Notes: a model not told the origin generated them from the sequence alone. DNA of 64,000 bases from Escherichia coli (GCF_024700885.2 NZ_CP117014.1), one strand, 5' to 3'; shown: positions 43-47,100, counted from the stretch's first letter. Made by a program: numbers and translations.

Positions 43-287
43 AGTGTAGTGACTCCTTGCTTTCGGAGCCGCCATCGACTGTTCCACGGTCTGGTGGCGG
101 CGCAATAAAGGCTGGAACACCGTGAGTCAACGGGGGCTTTTCAGCCACCTATATTGCACCGCCATAGGTATGACGGCGGCAATAATACGAAAAACTAAAC
201 AGTTTGTCTCAAAAAGTTGACCGGTGTGCCAATCGGTAGTGAATGTACATCGGAGAAATTTACAATTCAACTTAAAATGTTAGAAAA

Positions 288-866
288 CTAATTTATCGAT
301 TCAATCGCCATCTGATACAACGTCATTTCATCGGCATTGTGCCGTATGAAATCTGCTTTTCCGCCTATTTTTCCATCAGCATGAACAGGGACCAGCCAGG
401 GATATTGTTCTCGGACCTCGGCTGGCGCTGCGTACTGGTGGTGCCATTTACACAAAGGGAGGACATATTTATGCGCGTTCTCTGCCGTTCTCCCGAAGAT
501 ATGGTGCAGGGATACCACTGGGCTATGTTGCCCGTGAATATGGCAGGCAATGCAGGGGAGAGTACCTATAGCGGTCTGTATCCGGCGTTCATCGGCTGTG
601 AGTGATCTGCCTTTCAGGCCGCGTGACGTGCGTGTTTTTTTGGGCGGAGCGGATACAGCTTTATCTTTTCTCCGCTGTTCATATTGCTTTGCTTTTTCAT
701 TTTTCTTTTGCCGATATTCAGGCGATGCGGCCTTTTCTCTCGCTCGCTGCTGCTGGCGTTGAGCTTGTTGAAGGCGCTTTGCCCTTTGTTCCTCTCGCCA
801 GGCCGGGTCAGCCAATTTTTGCATGGCTTTTTGTCTCTGTTTCTCCCAATAACTCTGTTTCTGCAT
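288..866 (-). CDS. ref: Ref-like HNH endonuclease (recombination enhancement function)
   Basis: 192 aa; Cys/His motifs LPCIACHIHG, SLHHIFGRT, PLCKWHH, APAEVREQYPWLVPVHADG match my recollection of P1 Ref. Confidence 0.65.
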   Translation of the reverse strand: MQKQSYWEKQRQKAMQKLADPAWREEQRAKRLQQAQRQQQRAREKAASPEYRQKKNEKAKQYEQRRKDKAVSAPPKKTRTSRGLKGRSLTADERRIQTAIGTLPCIACHIHGQHSPVVSLHHIFGRTAENAHKYVLPLCKWHHQYAAPAEVREQYPWLVPVHADGKIGGKADFIRHNADEMTLYQMAIESIN

Positions 867-3081: not shown

Positions 3082-3302
3082 CAGAACAGACGATGACAAA
3101 TCGCGAACTTGTTGATGCCGCGATTGAACTTGCTGGCGATTTTTATTCCATGATGGGGTACACGCATCGCCCAGGCTTCAAATATTGGGAGTCTCCGCAC
3201 CCGCAAGAGCAACGGGTATTTCAAATGGCCTGCCGCGCTTTTGAAGTTATTCGCGGTTCTGATGTGATGGACGCGGTTGCTGATTTGGAGGATGAAGAGT
3301 GA
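3078..3302 (+). CDS. Hypothetical small acidic protein
   Basis: ORF with ATG and RBS AGGAGA; coupled to neighbours. Confidence 0.35.
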   Translation: MTEQTMTNRELVDAAIELAGDFYSMMGYTHRPGFKYWESPHPQEQRVFQMACRAFEVIRGSDVMDAVADLEDEE

Positions 3303-3610
3303 ACACAATTAAAGAAATGCCGGTAGAACGTGATGAATATGGCTGCTGGACACATCCGGAGTATGAGAAGTTTTGCGCAGGTCGTGAATATATTTCCACT
3401 GAGGAATTTGACGCCTGGATGAAGGAAAATAATCTTCAGTGGACTATTCGCAGTATGGATGAAGATGATTTTGATCTGGACGCAGCTGGTCCCGATATTG
3501 CCGCCTGGGAACCGGAGCGACCAGAGGGTGAAGGCTGGTTTGTTGGCTCTATTCATGACACTGAAGATGGTCCGGTTTGTATCTGGCTGCGTGAGAAGGT
3601 TGCCGCATGA
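3299..3610 (+). CDS. Hypothetical small acidic protein
   Basis: ORF with GTG start and RBS GGAGGA. Confidence 0.35.
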   Translation: MNTIKEMPVERDEYGCWTHPEYEKFCAGREYISTEEFDAWMKENNLQWTIRSMDEDDFDLDAAGPDIAAWEPERPEGEGWFVGSIHDTEDGPVCIWLREKVAA

Positions 3611-3767
3611 CCCAGGCTCTGCATGAAGTGAATTTATATAGCCGTATTGATGGTTCTGGCTATAGAAACTAGACACGGGCGCGGTTTTTAGCGGAAATCT
3701 GACGCTAATGCAGGTGAAGGGAGGGCAGCTTAAAGTCTGATCAAATCATTTACGCACTCAAAATCAC

Positions 3768-3796
3768 GTTAGAACATTGATTTTAGTTTTCTAACA
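3768..3796 (+). promoter_or_regulatory. Operator-like inverted repeat GTTAGAA-N14-TTCTAAC overlapping a putative promoter
   Basis: Perfect 7-bp inverted half-sites 45 bp upstream of the 3839 start; contains the recurrent TTCTAACA motif. Confidence 0.45.
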
Positions 3797-3838
3797 TATT
3801 ATTTTACCGATCGGAACAAAACAGAGTCGGTATGCATT

Positions 3839-17041: not shown

Positions 17042-17098
17042 AGCACCCTCCTAAATAGGCGAGGGTACTTTACAGCAAAGGCGTTAATCTAAAAAGAT

Positions 17099-17106
17099 GT
17101 GTTAGA
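17099..17106 (-). promoter_or_regulatory. Operator-like motif (TGTTAGAA) upstream of the 17041-13420 operon
   Basis: Same motif family as 937-944 and others. Confidence 0.4.
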
Positions 17107-17114
17107 AATTTAAT

Positions 17115-22972: not shown

Positions 22973-23365
22973 CTACCAGCTAGACAAACGAACAACATGT
23001 TTCACTTTTGCGATCCACTGTCCGCGATAACTATTGATTACGGCCTGTGCCAGCTTCAAATTGGCTTCAAAATCAGCCTTACTACCATCAGACTCCACCA
23101 GCATTCCTCCATCTATTTCTGGTAAACATAGATAATCCTGCTCAACCTGCAGCGGCATTGATGGCTCTCTGAATGGGGTTACTTGCTCTGCTTTCCAGCG
23201 AAATCTAACCCTTATCCCCCTGGTGGTCATTACTAGATAGCCTGTTATAGTGCTTTTATGGCCCACATCAGTACGCGTGGCATTGCATGACTCGATCTTA
23301 CAGTTAGCGATAGACCACTCCATATTGGTGGCCTGTTGAGTGCTTAATTTGGTAGTCCCGTACAT
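22973..23365 (-). CDS. Hypothetical 130-aa protein
   Basis: ORF coupled with the upstream 191-aa gene. Confidence 0.3.
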   Translation of the reverse strand: MYGTTKLSTQQATNMEWSIANCKIESCNATRTDVGHKSTITGYLVMTTRGIRVRFRWKAEQVTPFREPSMPLQVEQDYLCLPEIDGGMLVESDGSKADFEANLKLAQAVINSYRGQWIAKVKHVVRLSSW

Positions 23366-23940
23366 CAGAAAGCCTCCCAGTCAGTCGCGATAATATCCAC
23401 ACCAGTTGCAAACCAGTCTGTCTGCGCCTGTAAATCCCCATTCATCATTACCAGGCGAGGCATCACCATCACATCGCACCCTTCCACAATATCGAATGCC
23501 TCTTCCGGCAAGAATTCGAAGAGCTTTTCTTTGCTGCCAATACTGCCACGGAACATCGATATATAGCTCCCTTTGGGCCATGATGTCCGCCGGGCATCAA
23601 GCCCTTTCATCATCCAGTAAAAAGCCGAGGAAAAAGGGATATTCTTTTTGCCAATGATTACATTATTCGCTTCTGTGTATTTCAGGAACTTAACTAACCT
23701 TACCATTGACTCGGATAACGCAACGTATGGCTCATGATTGATTGCTGACACGCTTACACCGTGCAATCCAACGCTTACCACTGTCATATCGCCGCTCTGT
23801 GCGGTTTCGATATTGACGCCTTTGCGAACTAATGAGGCGTAAATTTCCTCTCGCTTTTGGGTCCAGCGTTCACGCTTCCCTATGAAGTCACTCAAAATGA
23901 GATCTTCTTCTGTATATGCGTTATCGTTCGCCATTAACAT
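23365..23940 (-). CDS. Hypothetical 191-aa protein with a possible DUF2829-like C-terminal region
   Basis: FYWMMKGLDARRTSWPKGSYISMF ... TDWFATGVDIIATDWEAF loosely parallels the 15278 ORF pattern. Confidence 0.3.
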   Translation of the reverse strand: MLMANDNAYTEEDLILSDFIGKRERWTQKREEIYASLVRKGVNIETAQSGDMTVVSVGLHGVSVSAINHEPYVALSESMVRLVKFLKYTEANNVIIGKKNIPFSSAFYWMMKGLDARRTSWPKGSYISMFRGSIGSKEKLFEFLPEEAFDIVEGCDVMVMPRLVMMNGDLQAQTDWFATGVDIIATDWEAF

Positions 23941-24392
23941 AACGTTTCCTTTTTTACACGCGCGACTATCCCCCGGAAGTACCGGTAGTGATGTCGTAAC
24001 TTCGTATTAATTAAGGGGTACAGCCTGAGCGGCTATATGATGAATTGAAAGGAGTTGTGGCGGTGGTGCCTCCACCTGCCAGGTTAGCCACTCCTGGCGA
24101 CGTCACTTATCAGAACGTAGTGAATGAAAATGGCTTCGTCACGAGCGCATAGCCGCAATTACCACAACGGAAACGGCGCTCACGCTAATTAAACGCCTTT
24201 TCCTGTTGTGCGCCGTGCTCTTCCGGCTGTCACACCGAATCGCCAGGATGGTGAATCCGCAGTCCGACGCTATGAACGGGGCTTGCACATTCCGGCTACC
24301 TGGTGTGCCCATGCAGTGTTAGTAAAAGGTACCTAACAGCTACACCAGACCGCTAACGACGCATGTGCCATACGCCGTGTTACAACCAAATG

Positions 24393-24468
24393 TGGTGGCC
24401 CCTACCGGACTTGAACCGGTGACCGTGCGATTATGAGTCGCCCGCTCTAACCACTGAGCTAAAGGGCC
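24393..24468 (-). tRNA. tRNA with CAT anticodon, most like tRNA-Ile2 (lysidine, reads AUA)
   Basis: GGCCCTTTAGCTCAGTGGTTAGAGCGGGCGACTCATAATCGCACGGTCACCGGTTCAAGTCCGGTAGGGGCCACCA; cloverleaf folds; closely resembles E. coli ileX as recalled. Confidence 0.75.
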
Positions 24469-24897
24469 AGATTACTGTTAATTACGCTTACGCTTTTTGC
24501 CAGAACCGCGTAAGGCTTTTGCCGCTTGCTCTACCCCGTATGCAACCACCAGCAGAAACAATAATGTCCACTCCGGGTTTTTATCGGCAAACGCCCAAAA
24601 ATCCATCACTTGCAGCCACCTTTTAAGACAAAACGCCATTGCTGTTAGGTTGCGGTGCCGGGCGCCTCCCGGTGACGTTAACCAGTTAACAATTAACGCC
24701 GGATCACTTATGGATTCTCGTTACGCCAGTAAAAAGACCACCTTTACTGTTTTAACTGTTCCGCGTGCGCTTAGCCGCATTCACCGCAATGGTAAGAGCA
24801 TTTGGCTGACTGGGCGGCGATGACGCCTGTACGCATTTGGTGATCCGGTTCTGCTTCCGGCATTCGCTTAATTAGCCAAATACCCTTAATGTTGCAC

Positions 24898-24984
24898 TGG
24901 CGGAGAGTAATGGAATCGAACCATCATCGCTTGCGCAATGGGACGGTTTTCAAGACCGCTTGAGCACCATGCTCCCTACTCTCC
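24898..24984 (-). tRNA. tRNA-Ser (anticodon TGA) with long variable arm
   Basis: GGAGAGT...GGTCTTGAAAACC...GGTTCGATTCC...CTCTCCGCCA; 87 nt. Confidence 0.7.
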
Positions 24985-25438
24985 CGTTATTGTGGCGACC
25001 GGTGCTGATCTCCGGCTTGCGGTTATTTCAGACTCTCACGGGCGTTTAATTGCCCCGCCGAACAGCTCTTTTCCGCAATAGCTGCAATGTCTTTCGCGCA
25101 TCAGCCTGCGCATTCACCACAATGTTGAGAACACTGGTTGTCACGCTGCAACGCAACATTTATTCGTAGATTGGGATATGACCCCGTTACGCCAGTGTTC
25201 TCAACGTTGTAGTGCCGGTTACGGTTCCGGCCAGACCTCTTCCTCAACGGGGTGTTCTCCATACGGACTACCGTTTATTGGTCGTTCCTGCGGTTTATGT
25301 TGTGAAGCCAGATGCTTATCTTCTGGTTGCTTCAAAGAGCTGCACTTCATCACAACGGTAAGAGCATTTATGGCTCGCATCGCGGGAAAAAGCCCACGGT
25401 AGAGAGTCGAACTCTACAAATGCTCTTACCTGTTGTGT

Positions 25439-25514
25439 TGGTGCCGGTTAACGGGATCGAACCGCTGACCATTCGCTTACAAAGCGACTGCTCTACCAAC
25501 TGAGCTAAACCGGC
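25439..25514 (-). tRNA. tRNA-Thr (anticodon TGT)
   Basis: GCCGGTTTAGCTCAGTTGGTAGAGCAGTCGCTTTGTAAGCGA...GGTTCGATCCC...AACCGGCACCA. Confidence 0.7.
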
Positions 25515-25518
25515 AATT

Positions 25519-25605
25519 TGGTGGGGAGTGATGGAGTCGAACCACCCGAGTCGCAATGACAGTAGATTTACAGTCTACCCCGCTACCCCTACGGACTAAC
25601 TCCCC
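25519..25605 (-). tRNA. tRNA-Tyr (anticodon GTA) with long variable arm
   Basis: GGGGAGTTAGTCC...AGACTGTAAATCT...GGTTCGACTCC...CTCCCCACCA. Confidence 0.7.
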
Positions 25606-25610
25606 TAAAT

Positions 25611-25687
25611 TGGCGATGGTGGGTGGATTCGAACCACCTACCGAAAGCTTAGAAGGCTGCTGTTCTATCCTACTGAGCTACACCATC
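25611..25687 (-). tRNA. tRNA-Arg (anticodon TCT, reads AGA)
   Basis: GATGGTGTAGCTCAGTAGGATAGAACAGCAGCCTTCTAAGCTTT...GGTTCGAATCC...CACCATCGCCA; anticodon loop CTTCTAA like argU; stem slightly degenerate. Confidence 0.6.
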
Positions 25688-26191
25688 ACTTGCCGGGTAC
25701 GTCTCCGGCGAGGGCTTCCACCTCCGTATGCTTTTCGGCGCACCGCGCCCTGGCTGCAATTCGGTAACAGGGGATGCACAACCCTGGCTTCCAGCGTGAT
25801 TAGCGCCTTCAGCATGACGGGATATACCCGTTACAAGAAGTTCTCCCAGGATGCCATTAAGCAATGGCTGTTACGCGGGAAGGACGCAACAGGTAAGGGC
25901 GCTGACCAGAAAGACCTGACCCTTCTCATTCATCTGGTTAATCACACCAGCGCCCTTGCCTGTTATGCCTCCCCGTTCCCTAATACACAGACGGGGACAC
26001 TCTGCGGTCGATTTTTTTGACGGGGGACGACTCATACCCCGTGGCGTCTGGCTTCTTAGGCCGCTACCATCATCAGATCATCGTTTGCATTTACTTTAAT
26101 GGTCAGTTTCTAAACCGCCGCAAAGTCGCTAACCATGACGAAAACCCTAAAAAAGCCCACCCGAAGATGGGCAAATACGCTACATCTCACA

Positions 26192-26270
26192 CAAGAAAGA
26201 AGCCGACTGCCTGAGCTGGATTCACTTTCAAATGCCCGCTGAAAGGGATCACAAGTCGGCTTCTTTCTTG
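26192..26270. ncRNA. Long perfect hairpin (17-bp stems, about 45-nt loop), candidate structured RNA
   Basis: CAAGAAAGAAGCCGACT ... AGTCGGCTTCTTTCTTG in a 1.2-kb ORF-poor region next to the tRNA array. Confidence 0.3.
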
Positions 26271-26756
26271 ATGCGGCACTCTCTCCGCCCGTCACCGCTC
26301 TGTCTCGGTTGTCGCGTTTGCCACGCCAGCCGTAACGAGGTTTAAAGTCTTTACACGTTTCCATCACTCGACTGCCGTCTGTGGCTGTTCGTTGCAGCGG
26401 GGGTGCCTCCCCCTGGGGATATCCCCGGCCTTACCCCATTCTTTCAAGACACAATGCAAGGCCACATCCGCATAGGTGCATTACCGCAACATTAAGGAGA
26501 CTCAGGGCAAAAGGTAACCGCCACAAAAATCCCTATGCCTCCTTAATGTTGAAGATGTGCATTGATGATTAGATGCAGCATGTACCGTTACTCTCTGCCG
26601 GACCATCATCAATGAACACCTTAAAAAGACCTTCCGTGGCTCAACATGTATTGTCGTTTACTCCGCAAAGTGCTCTCTCTGAAACCACTTTCCGCACTAA
26701 ACCTGCTGAACTTTGGCCTGCACGGTGCCAAAGCGTGCTCTTGCATTACTATACAT

Positions 26757-26920
26757 TTCTAACACTTTAATTTGTTAAATGCTGGTGGGCGAACAATAAC
26801 CAATAAGTGACTATCAAGCCCAGCAAGCGAAACGTGGGTACCGCCCACCAGCAAGGAAAATTCTATGTTAAGTTATCTTCACAATCAATACATTCGAATT
26901 GTGATTTTAGATTTCTAACA
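26757..26920. promoter_or_regulatory. Two operator-like motifs flanking an 11-bp perfect inverted repeat
   Basis: TTCTAACA at 26757-26764 and 26913-26920; GCTGGTGGGCG ... CGCCCACCAGC between them. Confidence 0.35.
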
Positions 26921-26922
26921 CA

Positions 26923-28131
26923 TTATTTCCCATAAAGATCTTCTACACCCCCATTCTTCTTATCCCATTCGTTCGCCCATACCCGGCAAGCGTCAATGAT
27001 TTCCTGACGACGATCTCCTTGCATGAACGGGATGCTTTCATGGAAACAGCTTGGAATGCAGGCCACACTGAATACAGTATCAAACTCCGTCTGCTTGATT
27101 GCCTCCAGCGTCTCCGGACGCATTTTTAATTCATCGATTGGCGCATCCTTAGAGTCCATAATCCGGCGATATAAGCGCGGAAAATCCGTCTCCAGATACG
27201 CCATAATTTTATCTGCGAGACATTCGTCTATGTCGGTATTCCAGTCCTTTTCGAAGCCCGGCAGGCGATAGTAAAGCGGCGTTCCCCATACCGATGGGAT
27301 CACATCCATCGTTAACAGGCGATTGGTTCTGATTTGTTGATGGTAATTAGCCGTCAGCAGTGCTTCGCCACGCTGCCCAGTTTCCGCAACCAGGCCGTGC
27401 GGATACTCATGGATGTAGGCAATGGCATCCCTTCCATCATACATAAGTGGAAATGTCTCTGGTCTTTGTCCCATGCCACAAGCACGGTTCAGATCGTGAC
27501 CAAGCTGTGAGCACTCTCGCTTTAATGTTTCGATAATGCTCTGCGCTGTAGCCAACTTTTTACGCAGTGTGACGCCTTCGCCTTGATAATCAATGCATTG
27601 CTGATTGAGCTTGGTTAAACGCTCTTTTAGTTCCCGGCGCTCTCTTTTCAGCGTGCGGTTATCCTTCTCCGCAACATCCAGCCGCTTTGTCAGGCTTGGC
27701 GGATAGTCTTTTTTGTAACGGTTCAAATCGGCTTCGGCAGATTTACGCAGTGTATTTGCCTGTTCAAGACGCGCTTCCAGATTGCCGATCTCATTACGCA
27801 TATTCGCGGCAAATTGATTAACTGCATCACCCAGGCTTTCAACTGTCGCTGATACGCCTGTGACTTGTGAAAAACGGATCAAGCCATCATTAACTGCTTG
27901 TTGGTATTCCTCAAACTGATCCACCAGCTTATTGTAATCAACTGCCCCATCATCAAGCAGCTTGTTGATTTCCGCCACCAGGTTATCTGTAGTGGCAATG
28001 ACACTCTCGTGCAGTCGCTTTGACAGGTCATCACCCGGATTCCGTTTCTGTATAAGAGCGATTTGTGTGCGCAGCGTTTCAATTGCTGTCGAGATAATTT
28101 CCAGATTAGAAGTATCAGTGTGTTGACTCAT
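26923..28131 (-). CDS. Hypothetical 402-aa protein: N-terminal coiled coil plus unrecognised C-terminal domain
   Basis: ORF with operator-like motif (28162-28169) in its promoter; no motif I can assign to a known family. Confidence 0.5.
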   Translation of the reverse strand: MSQHTDTSNLEIISTAIETLRTQIALIQKRNPGDDLSKRLHESVIATTDNLVAEINKLLDDGAVDYNKLVDQFEEYQQAVNDGLIRFSQVTGVSATVESLGDAVNQFAANMRNEIGNLEARLEQANTLRKSAEADLNRYKKDYPPSLTKRLDVAEKDNRTLKRERRELKERLTKLNQQCIDYQGEGVTLRKKLATAQSIIETLKRECSQLGHDLNRACGMGQRPETFPLMYDGRDAIAYIHEYPHGLVAETGQRGEALLTANYHQQIRTNRLLTMDVIPSVWGTPLYYRLPGFEKDWNTDIDECLADKIMAYLETDFPRLYRRIMDSKDAPIDELKMRPETLEAIKQTEFDTVFSVACIPSCFHESIPFMQGDRRQEIIDACRVWANEWDKKNGGVEDLYGK

Positions 28132-38755: not shown

Positions 38756-39168
38756 AGTTACGGCCTCACTAACAGGTTTAACAACCTGCCACCCGCTGTC
38801 AAACAGGTGGCAGGACGTGACAGGGTTGACAGACTGGCGTTAGTGAAACCAGCAGGCCGAAGCCTCCCCATCACGCCCCACCATAATTCGGGCGTAACGC
38901 GGTTTACGGACACAAAAATACCGCAATATCGGAAATCTGCGGTTGTCCGCACTAACATTCAGGCTGTCAAACCCGGTCGCAGAATTTGCTACGACGGCAT
39001 GAATATAAGCCTGAAAACATGGAAGATCAACTAAAAATTTCAGCAATGGATGACTTCAGTCGATGATGCAGATCATACATTCCGTTTTAGAAACAGCAAA
39101 TTAATTTTCTAACATAAATAATCGGCCGAGCATTTTCCGATCATTGGGATGTTTTGTAGACACACAGG

Positions 39169-44116: not shown

Positions 44117-47100
44117 TTTGCAACTCCTTCATACATCCCAAGAAAAATTCCAGCACGCCGTCATTGTTTAATACAGAGTTAGTCGCCTGCTCCGGATCGG
44201 CATACATCTGCAAGGCCATAGAAAAAATCTCAGTCGCCCTGCAATTGCTTAATGCAGGTGGCTTTGATATAAATCTGCCGCTGACAGAACTTACCGTATT
44301 TTCCATATAAATTTTAGACATATATCCATGACTTAGGTCGGTTCGCACCAAATACTCAGCACTGCCACGGCTACCAATATTATGATAAGAAACTTTACCG
44401 TTAGTTTTTGATTTAATGAAGGCTTTGGCCCTCTCCAATAGATGGGGATTTGAATGTTCTATATGGTGACCTATTTCATGCCATAATACACGCTCGTGAT
44501 CACTATTAGCATCAATTGTTATATTCCCATTTCGACTTGCAAAAGCACGAACATTGTTCTTGTGGTTAATATTTTTTAATGTAGATAAAGTCCCTCCTGA
44601 AATAATATAGGCTTTTTCAATCGTCTCGCGAATACTGTATGCTTTACGGGAGAAAGTTTCATTATCGTGACCACTTAACTGCTCTGCTTCATCAGAAATA
44701 GCAATCCCACGACTCCATTCCTTAGACTGGTCATGTGACACATTTGACGATTCAAGAATCATGTCAAATGCGGCTCTGACTTTTTTATGTACTACATTTT
44801 CAAGCGCATTAGGATAGGCTTTTTGTCCACGTGTTAATGAAGCTATTTCATATAGTTCTGCTTGCAAGTCTTCCGGTATGTCCAGATTAAAAACAAGCAT
44901 TTTTTTCAGATCATATCCAATCCCATGATCATTCTGGTGCAAAACCTCAGCAAGGTAGTCAGTGAGTTTTTCCTTATTTGACCTAACTTTATTGATTTGT
45001 TCTATAGTAAAGTCAACACGCTCCTTGATTCCGTAATATGAGGAATGCTCTGCTAATTCCACTATCTCCTTAAGCCTGACAAGTGTCTCAATATACGCAT
45101 CAGCGATCTCCTCTGCCGTTAGTTCAGAGCTAACTCCGACACTGGCTGTTATTTTCCTACCAGCCGCCATAATATCGTCGATATTATGCAAGCTCTTTTT
45201 GAATAACTTCAAAGTATTTTGGATTATGCACACCATCTCTTCTGCGCTTCCAGCTTTATTCATTTCCTTTCTAAATCTTAAAGCTGTTTTCTCTGCAATA
45301 GACGCTGGAGATTTTAAATAGTTACCTAACCAAACAAGACAACCATTGCGCAATTCATCAATACTAAAGTCATCAGGAATATGTTTTGCTGCATTATGTA
45401 AAACACGTATAAATTGTTCAGCGGGCACGCCTTCTTCTGATATGTTGCAAAACGTTTCAATATCACAATCAATATTTCTTTCATCTGCGAGCGAAGGAGC
45501 TTCATCTCCTTTTTCAATCGCGTCACGCAGTGCGTTAGCATAAAAATTGCTGCGTTGATAAGACAATAACATCGTTGTTAACACAGCGTCGCTGTATCCA
45601 TAACGTTTAGCCCACTCCTTAATCTCATTAACGGTGACATTGCGAATATAAAAACCAAGTTCCAAAAATACATTGCGCTTTATTTTTTTTGCGGACTCCT
45701 TAATTTTTTCTGACACCTTCACGATTCGGATCAAGTCCTCCACGCTGGTCGCATCAGCAATTAGCTTTGAAATGTATGGTTCGACATCTCCTGAAACCGA
45801 TTCAAACATGGCGAAATTAAGCCCTTTACCTTCGCCATACTCAGCCTCAATTTCATCAGAAACGGCAGATAAAATGCTACGCAGATCGACATCTCCGCCG
45901 CCGAACATATCGCCTAACGCTTGTTGCTGGTGAATAAGTTCATCGTTAATTTTTTGCGCCAGTTTCTTGAAAGCTGCCCCCATTCGCTTAGCGCTTCGGT
46001 TGTTGGCAACAATAAACAGAGCAAGCGCTTCTGCTTCCGGAGTGCTATCTCCAAACAATCCACGCTGTGCGATCACCTCTTCTACTGCCTGACCGTTATC
46101 TTTTGCTTCACGAACAAGGTTAATTGCTTCCTGTAGCGCGGCAATAGCCTGTTTATCCAGACCATTCAATTGCTCTATACCGTCTACCAGTCCGGTTACC
46201 GTGTCATGGTGAACATCACCTGAAAGCGACTGCATTTGCGCAAAATCGCTGGCTGCCGTATTTAATGCGGTAAGAATGTTACGCATTTCCGGATCTGGCT
46301 CTTCCGCCACCAGCCGAACAAGCCTTTCATCCTTGTACGCTTTGGCAAAAATTGCATTCTGGATGCGGTCGATAAGTTGTTTCGTTGGACGCCCATCGGC
46401 AGTAAGCAAACCTGCCGTCGCCGTATCACCTATTTCGCGCAAAAACGCACGAATAAACGCATCATTGGACCGCGCCAGTAGATTTCCATCATCTGAAGGA
46501 TTAAATAGCGCCATGACGCTCTCAGTGAGAAATTGCGCATCCGCATACGCTTTTTCACTTGCAGCCATCTCTTGCAGATCGCTGATGTTTGAATCGCGGG
46601 CAAATTGTGCGCGGTCTACATCTGTGAGTCTTTCTCGCACCAATACGGGCATAGACATTTGTGAAATGTCGTCAGGATTCAGACCAAACTCTTTTGCATG
46701 ATCGATCAGGTACTGGCGATATTCATCCGCCTGCCCTTGCTCATAGGCACGCCAGATACCCATGCTCCTTCCGTTGCCGGATTCAACAACGTTGTCCGGA
46801 CCAACTATCGGCGCTCCGTGGCTGCTCATGCCGGAATCCGTTAATTGTGCCGGGCGTAAATTGGAGGCAATACGGTTAACCTGGAGTTTGCTTGATAGCC
46901 GTGTACGGTCACGTGGCTGGAGTTCTTCCGGGAAGGCCGGATTAATCGTACCGTCAAGGTTGTTCGAAATGATCAGACTGCTGGCATCAACGACCTTAAA
47001 AGCCGTCTTTACCTCTGCCCCTTTACTGGTGACTACGTAACTACTGCGCCCCTGGCGTGTTTCTCGCCTCTCTAATGAAGAAACCAGCGCAATAACACTG

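Follow-up and report, generated by a model that had tools for sequence, protein, structure and literature searches.

The stretch of 64,000 nucleotides of Escherichia coli DNA analysed here (GCF_024700885.2, NZ_CP117014.1), which is referred to as the window, carries five transfer RNA (tRNA) genes on its minus strand between positions 24393 and 25687, and long hairpin-forming inverted repeats lie between and upstream of these genes. The best explanation for the whole locus, which we consider likely, is a tRNA operon of a D6/P1-type phage-plasmid, in which the tRNAs would supply over-used codons and RNA hairpins would punctuate the transcript. The array as such is not new and is already annotated in databases; what novelty it has is confined to the spacer hairpins.

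Five apparently functional tRNA genes

Exactly five tRNA genes were found by ARAGORN in the 64-kb window, all of them located on the minus strand, and the gaps within the Thr/Tyr/Arg block comprise only 4 and 5 nt. The genes are the following.

24393-24468, minus strand: tRNA-Ile2 (CAT), presumed to be lysidine-modified and to read AUA; ARAGORN, Rfam tRNA 66.7 bits
24898-24984, minus strand: tRNA-Ser (TGA), type II, variable arm of 6 bp, short D arm; ARAGORN
25439-25514, minus strand: tRNA-Thr (TGT); ARAGORN, Rfam tRNA 67.2 bits
25519-25605, minus strand: tRNA-Tyr (GTA), type II, an optional cassette; ARAGORN, Rfam tRNA 41.9 bits
25611-25687, minus strand: tRNA-Arg (TCT), cognate to AGA; ARAGORN, Rfam tRNA 55.1 bits

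All five form a cloverleaf with a paired acceptor stem and an encoded CCA, and the CAT, Thr, Arg and Tyr genes score 42-67 bits with the Rfam tRNA model (RF00005, threshold 29 bits). The tRNA-Ser shows a perfect 7-bp acceptor stem, G73, a GNRA loop on its 6-bp variable arm and a normal anticodon arm. In their anticodon loops the Tyr, Arg and Ser tRNAs do not differ from the host genes tyrU, argU and serT, and tRNA-Thr, which is 77.6% identical to K-12 thrU, does so at position 32 alone (U32 in place of the host C32). The array is conserved in hundreds of plasmids, and the Ser and Tyr genes are conserved in the lytic phage rV5 at 90% and 93%, respectively. The five tRNAs are intact and apparently functional. 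A first-pass annotation of this DNA had placed the five genes at exactly the above coordinates and spacing, had likened the CAT gene to tRNA-Ile2 rather than tRNA-Met, had assigned AGA to the TCT gene, and had described the array as larger than that of phage P1, which has three tRNAs (Ile2, Thr, Asn); all of these statements are borne out here.

The CAT gene is identified as tRNA-Ile2, and features of tRNA-Met are absent. It shares 89.5% identity with K-12 ileX compared to 71.4% with the elongator genes metT/metU, and the 5' strand of its anticodon stem equals that of ileX. The acceptor stem (GGCCCTT/AGGGGCC) contains C4:G69 and C5:G68 as in ileX, which we take to be positive determinants for TilS, whereas metT has U4:A69 and A5:U68. 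The NCBI annotation pipeline PGAP lists tRNA-Ile for the CAT gene on NZ_CP066033 and on every RefSeq relative examined, including a 99.7%-identical plasmid, and the P1 record names the orthologue tRNA-Ile2. In one IMG/VR contig the gene carries a single C34-to-T change, which results in the anticodon TAT (UAU) and makes sense only if the CAT tRNA is an AUA decoder. ARAGORN labels the gene as Met, which it does by design for every CAT anticodon.

Codon usage fits four of the five tRNAs

We compared the codon usage of 60 non-overlapping open reading frames (ORFs) of the window (17,376 codons) with that of 40 annotated K-12 genes (14,323 codons), all of which come from one 50-kb region. The ratios of window to host and the ranks among the 61 codons are listed below.

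AGG: 7.5-fold, rank 1 of 61
AGA: 6.2-fold, rank 2 of 61
AUA: 3.9-fold, rank 3 of 61
ACA: 3.4-fold, rank 4 of 61
UCA: 2.4-fold, rank 6 of 61
UAU (Tyr): 1.14-fold, rank 26 of 61
UAC (Tyr): 0.93-fold, rank 36 of 61

Four of the tRNAs fit classical codon compensation very well, and the codon-usage check for AUA and AGA, which had been suggested in the first-pass annotation, turned out positive for both codons. Since the Tyr codons are not enriched, codon supply explains these four tRNAs and not tRNA-Tyr, which may be a spare against nucleases targeting tRNA-Tyr. By way of codon supply, the tRNAs would raise translation.

Long hairpins between and upstream of the tRNA genes

At least eight long hairpins are located on the tRNA strand between 24770 and 26860, six of which were folded and compared with shuffled sequence (z-scores of RNA folding). 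The inverted repeats reported in the first-pass annotation are real, and some of their positions had to be corrected: GGTAAGAGCATTT occurs at 24791, as given there, and at 25357 (instead of 25348), its reverse complement starts at 25418 (instead of 25421), CAATGTTGAGAACACTGG starts at 25120 (instead of 25113), and the inverted partner of the latter, with one base different, starts at 25192 (instead of 25181). The sequence AAATGCTCTTACC was not found in the window outside the tRNA region. The hairpins and further spacer features are as follows.

24776-24897, minus strand: hairpin unit C, a long basal stem with two small internal hairpins, starting at the 3' end (CCA) of tRNA-Ser; inverted repeat I2, z -2.2
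25109-25218, minus strand: hairpin unit B, with arms of 23 nt (25115-25137 and 25192-25214) that are 91% complementary; inverted repeat I4, z -6.8
25342-25445, minus strand: hairpin unit A, arms include GGTAAGAGCATTT/AAATGCTCTTACC; inverted repeat I11, z -7.5
25880-25972, minus strand: upstream hairpin I8, AACAGGCAAGGGCGCTG ... CAGCGCCCTTACCTGTTGCG, same hairpin family; z -6.1, variants in the covariation alignment
26480-26556, minus strand: upstream hairpin I5, CAACATTAAGGAGG ... CTCCTTAATGTTGCGGTAATGC, same hairpin family; exact motif match, z -5.4
26155-26276, minus strand: I7, a hairpin of 17 perfectly paired bp (26192-26270) and, behind it, a strong hairpin resembling a terminator, with a T run (26172-26155); z -5.1
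24997-25016, minus strand: small leader hairpin GCCGG-AGATCAGCA-CCGGTC, located upstream of tRNA-Ser at a distance of about 12 nt; read from the sequence
25299-25368, minus strand: conserved 70-nt spacer segment including a small hairpin (25303-25332); 94-99% identical in relatives
25210-25237, minus strand: relic of a tRNA-Thr 3' end, GGTCTGGCCGGAACCGTAACCGGCACTA vs GGTCAGCGGTTCGATCCCGTTAACCGGCACCA; read from the sequence, conserved in P1, D6 and Ro157
24651-24788, minus strand: STnc100-like segment, partial and sub-threshold; RF02076 39.1 bits vs gathering 47, model positions 31-147 of 206

The occurrence of these hairpins is far beyond chance. Five of them share a signature, which consists of CAAC(A)GGTAAG or a close variant on the 5' side and CTTACC(N)GTTGYGRTGAA on the 3' side. 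The degenerate 3'-arm motif is found exactly in four places, all on the minus strand between 24781 and 26496; if up to two mismatches are allowed, 8 matches are obtained vs 2.6 expected, a number reached by none of 100 shuffles. The stems comprise 17-25 bp with one bulge or mismatch and thereby have the form of an RNase III substrate, and the stem of unit A begins 1-3 nt past the CCA of tRNA-Thr.

The small leader hairpins at 24997-25016 and 25303-25332 are paralogous: their CCGG/CCGG and CCAGA/TCTGG stems both pair, with AGATCAGCA and AGATAAGCA as loops. The relatives of the 70-nt segment around the second one are P1-like and SSU5-like E. coli as well as Klebsiella phage-plasmids, and in Klebsiella the segment is located directly upstream of tRNA-Ser. 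In 38 IMG/VR contigs a leader of the tRNA-Ser type and a type-A hairpin are immediate neighbours, not separated by any tRNA. The 28-nt relic ends with TAACCGGCACTA, compared to TAACCGGCACCA in tRNA-Thr, and is followed by hairpin B in the same way as tRNA-Thr is followed by hairpin A, and relic plus hairpin B look like a diverged duplicate of a module composed of the tRNA-Thr 3' end and hairpin A.

No Rfam family covers the hairpins, neither at gathering nor at E-value thresholds, in the window, lambda, P1, D6, rV5 and others; the matches obtained in these scans were the tRNAs, C4/a1b1, the sub-threshold STnc100 and noise of miRNA and tmRNA models. Text searches of the literature for the hairpin sequences found no paper. 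The STnc100-like match lies just downstream of unit C and occupies the same relative place in D6 and P1 (2727-2847 and 2502-2621 in the respective locus numbering). Two further candidates were rejected. The repeats do not represent P1-type operators, as the P1 C1 operator consensus has no match within three mismatches, and the resemblance of TGCTCTTA in units A and C to boxA is absent from other family members, with the motif buried in the stem.

The hairpin stems covary at the RNA level

The arms of the hairpins are conserved with compensatory changes when the window is compared with P1, D6, Ro157, an SSU5-like E. coli plasmid and a Klebsiella plasmid. The unit A arms are GGTAAGAGCATTT/AAATGCTCTTACC in the window vs GGTAAGGGTATTT/AAGTACCCTTACC in P1 and D6, and the unit B arms are GAGAACACTGG/CCAGTGTTCTC in the window vs GAGACCACTGG/CAGTGGTCTC in Klebsiella, where the interior is unrelated. 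In general, hairpin interiors are completely unrelated between lineages with common arms. When viral contigs were scanned, at least 120 more loci were obtained, and the hairpin of most of them is located directly 3' of the CCA of tRNA-Thr or tRNA-Asn.

Because the interiors are unrelated and whole units could not be aligned with MAFFT, we aligned the arms only, using 16 distinct variants. In this alignment 96.7% of the cells are paired, and 7 of the 15 pairs are changed on both sides (28 cells). The covariation score was reached by none of 500 shuffles, and partners that were slid by 1-3 columns pair in only 38-51%. On the tRNA-sense strand there are 34 G:U or U:G cells at eight columns vs a single A:C, an asymmetry that argues for selection acting on the transcript and not on DNA. 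In the P1/D6-like, SSU5-like and lambda copies, the asymmetric features of the hairpins, namely an A that bulges from the 5' arm and GTTGYGRTGAA as 3' flank, are always oriented with transcription. rV5 lacks these arms and shares only the unit C interior, which is co-directional with its tRNAs. As far as alignments can tell, it is shown that the stems are kept by compensatory substitution and that tRNAs and hairpin interiors are exchanged modularly between lineages.

Homologous hairpins occur in the lambda late leader, and the unit C interior also in rV5

The unit C interior AATTAAGCGAATGCCGGAAGCAGAACCGGATCACCAAATGCGTACAGGCGTCATCGCCGCCCAG is found again in 93 viral contigs, and many of these are lambdoid prophages of 27-45 kb. 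Its 64 nt are identical at 63 positions to lambda 44868-44931, a region that immediately follows tR', the terminator of the 6S RNA, and precedes S, and a homologue of the type-A hairpin is found in lambda at about 44787-44862. An intermediate locus (L140) matches lambda 44707-45025 at 89.3% over 311 nt. In mEp506 the slot after tR' instead holds tRNA-Asn and tRNA-Thr, and likewise in Kapi1; the same tRNA pair is known from P22-like prophages (PMC2629481). This slot is what has been called the 'moron insertion site' of lambdoid phages, 3' of PR', where small RNAs (sRNAs) and morons are known to occur (PMC4104026). The lambda setting differs from that of the window in that the hairpins do not lie beside tRNAs and belong to a Q-dependent late operon, not to a presumably repressor-controlled early operon. 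We found no described function for the lambda hairpins. Note that the lambda record contains only orf-64 (44621-44815) for the stretch 44785-44931, the start of which it overlaps, and that Rfam has no family there.

The trailer of the rV5 tRNA-Ser has an interior homologous to unit C. Across nine lambda-like, P1/D6-like and rV5 copies of unit C, the basal stem and the internal helices are paired in 96.4%, and 7 pairs are changed on both sides (none of 500 shuffles), among them two compensatory changes that arose independently in the GGCG/CGCC hairpin.

Host element and gene neighbourhood

Phage D6 is the best phage match of the locus (91.8% over 86% of a 2.2-kb query), followed by P7, P1 and other Punavirus, and E. 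coli plasmids of 96-97 kb carry near-identical copies (99.7% and 99.3% over 100% of the query). In addition, the window contains the elements of the immunity region ImmI at full Rfam scores, which confirms its P1-family identity. Together, the C4 RNA, the best match to D6 and the near-identical plasmid copies identify the window as a D6/P1-type phage-plasmid. The following neighbouring features were annotated.

38803-38888 and 38956-39008, minus strand: C4 antisense RNA and a1/b1 target sites (immunity region ImmI); full Rfam scores
23365-23940, minus strand: Tad2-family anti-Thoeris gene, directly downstream of tRNA-Ile2; PF11195, PGAP

The Tad2 homologue scores 39.3 bits with PF11195 (cut-off 25), in agreement with the name given by PGAP, so that an anti-defence gene adjoins the tRNA array. 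The tRNA strand contains no credible ORF from 24770 to 26860, and spacer ORFs such as a 74-residue ORF at 25178-25402 (plus strand) and a 53-residue ORF at 24478-24639 (minus strand) gave no Pfam match. In P1, the ORFs upl and plp (2660-3229 in P1 locus numbering) are located on the strand opposite to the tRNAs, over the region homologous to hairpins A and B, and look doubtful as real genes.

The array is one allele of a variable slot

The five-gene set is annotated on NZ_CP066033, CP077480, CP035876 and many more, in total on dozens of E. coli phage-plasmids, and PGAP lists all five genes on the 99.7%- and 99.3%-identical plasmids. A block of [Arg or Asn]-Tyr-Thr is present on plasmids of 261 of 5,426 complete E. 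coli genomes and on none of the chromosomes. A 'tRNAs region' of D6-like plasmids was already named in the literature, where Asn, Thr, Ser and 'Met' tRNAs were reported for pYU39_89 (PMC6799933). The arrays compare as follows.

P1: Asn-Thr ... Ile2
D6: Asn-Thr-Ser-Ile2 (the CAT gene is unannotated in the D6 record)
Ro157c2YLVW: Asn-Tyr-Thr-Ile2
RL465: Arg-Thr-Ser-Ile2
Window: Arg-Tyr-Thr-Ser-Ile2

Among 120 IMG/VR contigs 19 array types occur, and five contigs carry the array of the window. The tRNA-Tyr is missing in P1, D6 and RL465 and is found in Ro157 and in SSU5-like plasmids. The tRNA-Arg(TCT) is allelic to the tRNA-Asn(GTT) of P1 and D6 and occupies the same slot (D6 locus 3587-3662, P1 locus 3278-3353). 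It has the acceptor stem and the T arm in common with the tRNA-Asn of P1, D6 and Ro157, combined with a D loop like that of argU and an anticodon arm of the Arg type, and looks like a chimeric or remoulded tRNA allele.

P1 carries trnA (Asn), trnT (Thr) and trnI (Ile2) in its C1-controlled ban operon (NC_005856) at the orthologous position, with Thr and Ile2 in common with the window; the Ile2 region is 97% identical, and identity amounts to 86-89% for the leader and for the hairpins of units A and B. It differs in having Asn instead of Arg, in lacking Tyr and Ser, and in keeping tciA-C between the tRNAs; in P1 the apparent structured RNAs are covered by the oppositely oriented upl and plp, and the window is devoid of a P1-type C1 operator. 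D6 shares the flanking genes and the Ser, Thr and CAT tRNAs with the window, which compared to D6 has Arg for Asn, an added Tyr and a lost tciA/tciB cassette.

The cluster of the lytic Vequintavirus rV5 (Arg-AGA, Tyr, Ser-UCA, Thr-ACA, CAT, Pro) comprises the five specificities of the window plus Pro. Apart from the closely related Ser and Tyr genes, its Thr and CAT genes are only about 70% identical to those of the window, and rV5 differs further in gene order, in the extra Pro and tRNA-like genes and in hairpin arms of other sequence. The tRNA-like gene, which is unannotated and was found by ARAGORN between tRNA-Ser and tRNA-Thr (rV5 62,2xx-62,3xx), comprises 99 nt with a 4-base anticodon (atcc) and scores 35.5 bits with the Rfam tRNA model. 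The tRNA cluster of T4 includes Arg-UCU, Ile-CAU, Thr-UGU and Ser-UGA besides others and is co-transcribed with the stable RNAs C and D. It thus shares four of the five specificities and the co-transcription with structured non-tRNA RNAs, and its classical reading is codon compensation, but T4 is lytic and AT-rich and has eight tRNAs.

A proposed model of the tRNA operon

In the operon that we propose, a single minus-strand transcript, which would probably start from a repressor-controlled promoter, carries the structured RNAs and the five tRNAs in the order Arg-UCU, Tyr-GUA, Thr-UGU, Ser-UGA and Ile2-CAU. The candidate promoter is the following.

26860-26888, minus strand: promoter-like site TTGATT-17-TAGAAT; the only sigma-70-like match in 23300-27200

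The 21-mer TAGATTTCTAACACATTATTT occurs with up to three mismatches five times in the window (270-290, 3784-3804, 17092-17112, 26752-26772 and 26908-26928) vs 0.01 expected, and the last two copies bracket the promoter-like site. By analogy to Pban and Op72 of P1, the 21-mer is a candidate operator of a D6-type C1 repressor. The mature tRNAs would supplement the host pool for AGA/AGG, AUA, ACA and UCA, which are used 2.4- to 7.5-fold more than in the host sample. The hairpins would most likely represent structural punctuation of the transcript, which might allow endonucleolytic separation of the polycistronic precursor and/or provide protective ends, and they may serve in processing, in stability or as a scaffold for recombination. 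The repeated conserved arms could also be a substrate of homologous recombination for swapping tRNA cassettes, which would explain the alternation of Asn and Arg and the presence or absence of Tyr and Ser. The segment 26155-26276 holds the position of the 'dicF-like region' of P1 (according to the P1 annotation and homology mapping) and may be a separate sRNA; the Rfam DicF model gave no match to it at E<=5.

Several points weigh against this explanation. The host codon reference covers only 40 genes, the Tyr codons lack enrichment, and the stretch from the candidate promoter to the tRNAs contains a terminator-like hairpin (26172-26155); that the promoter is active, that there is one transcript and that an RNase cleaves it are points that we infer. 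In P1, knock-down of trnT, trnI and the intervening genes by CRISPR interference had no effect on plaque formation under laboratory conditions (PMC10695390), and any benefit of the tRNAs should hence be conditional. With regard to tRNA-Ser, the gene stays below the threshold of RF00005 with tRNA-Sec as best Rfam match (43.5 bits vs 47), PGAP lists it in RefSeq as tRNA-Ser but as tRNA-OTHER in some relatives, and according to the D6 record tRNAscan-SE gave no amino acid for it. Judged from the window by itself, the hairpins fold about as well on one strand as on the other, so that the strand assignment rests on the comparative G:U asymmetry, and the covariation alignments were built by hand from arms chosen for pairing and from sequences related by descent.

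Alternative explanations

The array, or at least its Tyr, Arg and Asn members, could mainly serve counter-defence by replacing host tRNAs that are lost to anticodon nucleases or toxins, which we regard as rather unlikely. A T5-like tRNA-Tyr rescues phage from Retron-Eco7, the PtuAB effectors of which degrade tRNA-Tyr (PMC11555353). A role of this kind agrees with Tyr codons that are not over-used, with the Tad2 homologue directly downstream of the array and with tciA-C, annotated as tellurite or colicin resistance, inside the same operon of P1. Moreover, Asn, Tyr and Arg, the tRNAs held by the polymorphic slots, are the targets of colicins E5 and D, which cleave them. However, the codons that are most over-represented are those read by four of the five tRNAs, and the host-identical anticodon loops of the Arg, Tyr and Ser tRNAs, with Thr differing at position 32 only, do not show the loop-escape signature that has been proposed for nuclease-resistant phage tRNAs (PMC10264068). 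Like the T5-like phages with their anti-defence tRNAs (tRNA-Tyr against Retron-Eco7, tRNA-Lys against PARIS and PrrC), the window has a tRNA-Tyr that codons do not explain, next to a gene of anti-defence, but the anticodon loop of this tRNA is that of the host. For tRNA-Tyr an anti-defence role would be a reasonable rival to codon supply. That some of the five genes are pseudogenes or mis-specified, for instance a non-functional tRNA-Ser or an elongator tRNA-Met in place of Ile2, is very improbable. This possibility could draw on the automatic calls, i.e. the sub-threshold Rfam score and the tRNA-OTHER label of tRNA-Ser, the missing amino acid in D6 and the Met label of ARAGORN, but the tRNA-Ser is structurally complete (acceptor stem, G73, variable arm, CCA) and 90% conserved in a lytic phage, and the CAT tRNA is ileX-like with Ile2 acceptor pairs. 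Pseudogene status and Met identity, which the first-pass annotation had named as the findings that would speak against it, were both checked and neither was found.

For the inverted repeats, it is conceivable, if unlikely, that they act as DNA, i.e. as recombination linkers, cruciforms or protein-binding sites for cassette exchange, and have no function as RNA. Interiors that are replaced wholesale between arms of >90% identity, the same interior 'alleles' in P1-like plasmids and lambdoid prophages of 37-45 kb, the 38 contigs with an 'empty' junction of leader and trailer and the 'boundary sequences' annotated in the homologous Q-S interval of the CUS-3 record are all in line with an action at the DNA level, and template switching at quasi-palindromes could mimic compensatory change. 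Selection on DNA only should, however, lead to symmetry, in contrast to the observed 34 G:U vs 1 A:C on the tRNA-sense strand; the asymmetric features (bulged A, 3' flank) are always oriented with transcription, and the internal helices of unit C covary too. The proposal of the first-pass annotation that the repeats are either decayed tRNA genes or processing structures holds better in its second part, given that the hairpins covary. Decay, which seems largely wrong and which we would hardly expect to be the origin of the repeats, is suggested by the 28-nt tRNA-Thr relic with its adjacent hairpin and by stem-loops resembling T arms in the interiors (GTAGAG-TTCGACT-CTCTAC in the window, AGGG-TTCGAAT-CCCT in P1/D6). 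Against it, neither ARAGORN at a lowered threshold nor Rfam found an extra tRNA on the minus strand, the arms have no homology to any part of a tRNA, and the stems show selection that preserves them as well as 94-99% conservation across hundreds of plasmids, which is not what decay would leave.

Implications

As a tRNA array the locus is ordinary, representing one more, already annotated allele (Arg-Tyr-Thr-Ser-Ile2) of the variable P1/D6 slot. The polymorphism of this slot, with Asn or Arg on a common acceptor stem and T arm and with optional Tyr and Ser, constitutes a natural experiment on codon supply vs anti-defence. As a tentative suggestion, which we consider possible rather than probable, the spacers could represent, instead of junk or tRNAs in decay, an undescribed family of structured phage RNAs in two types. 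If this is true, the stem of the first type (type A) covaries around at least six unrelated interior 'alleles' that are discrete and exchanged horizontally and that are common to P1/D6-like plasmids and lambdoid prophages, and the unit C type has a conserved three-helix interior in the lambda late leader, in P1/D6-like plasmids and in rV5. The elements would then travel with tRNA cassettes between unrelated phage families, and they would either set processing or insulation boundaries of tRNA and sRNA cassettes or scaffold variable regulatory or decoy loops. The hairpin spacers, which show selection at the RNA level and have no Rfam family, tie the P1 tRNA operon to the lambda late leader and to rV5 and pose a small, testable question, namely how phages punctuate and exchange their tRNA and sRNA cassettes.

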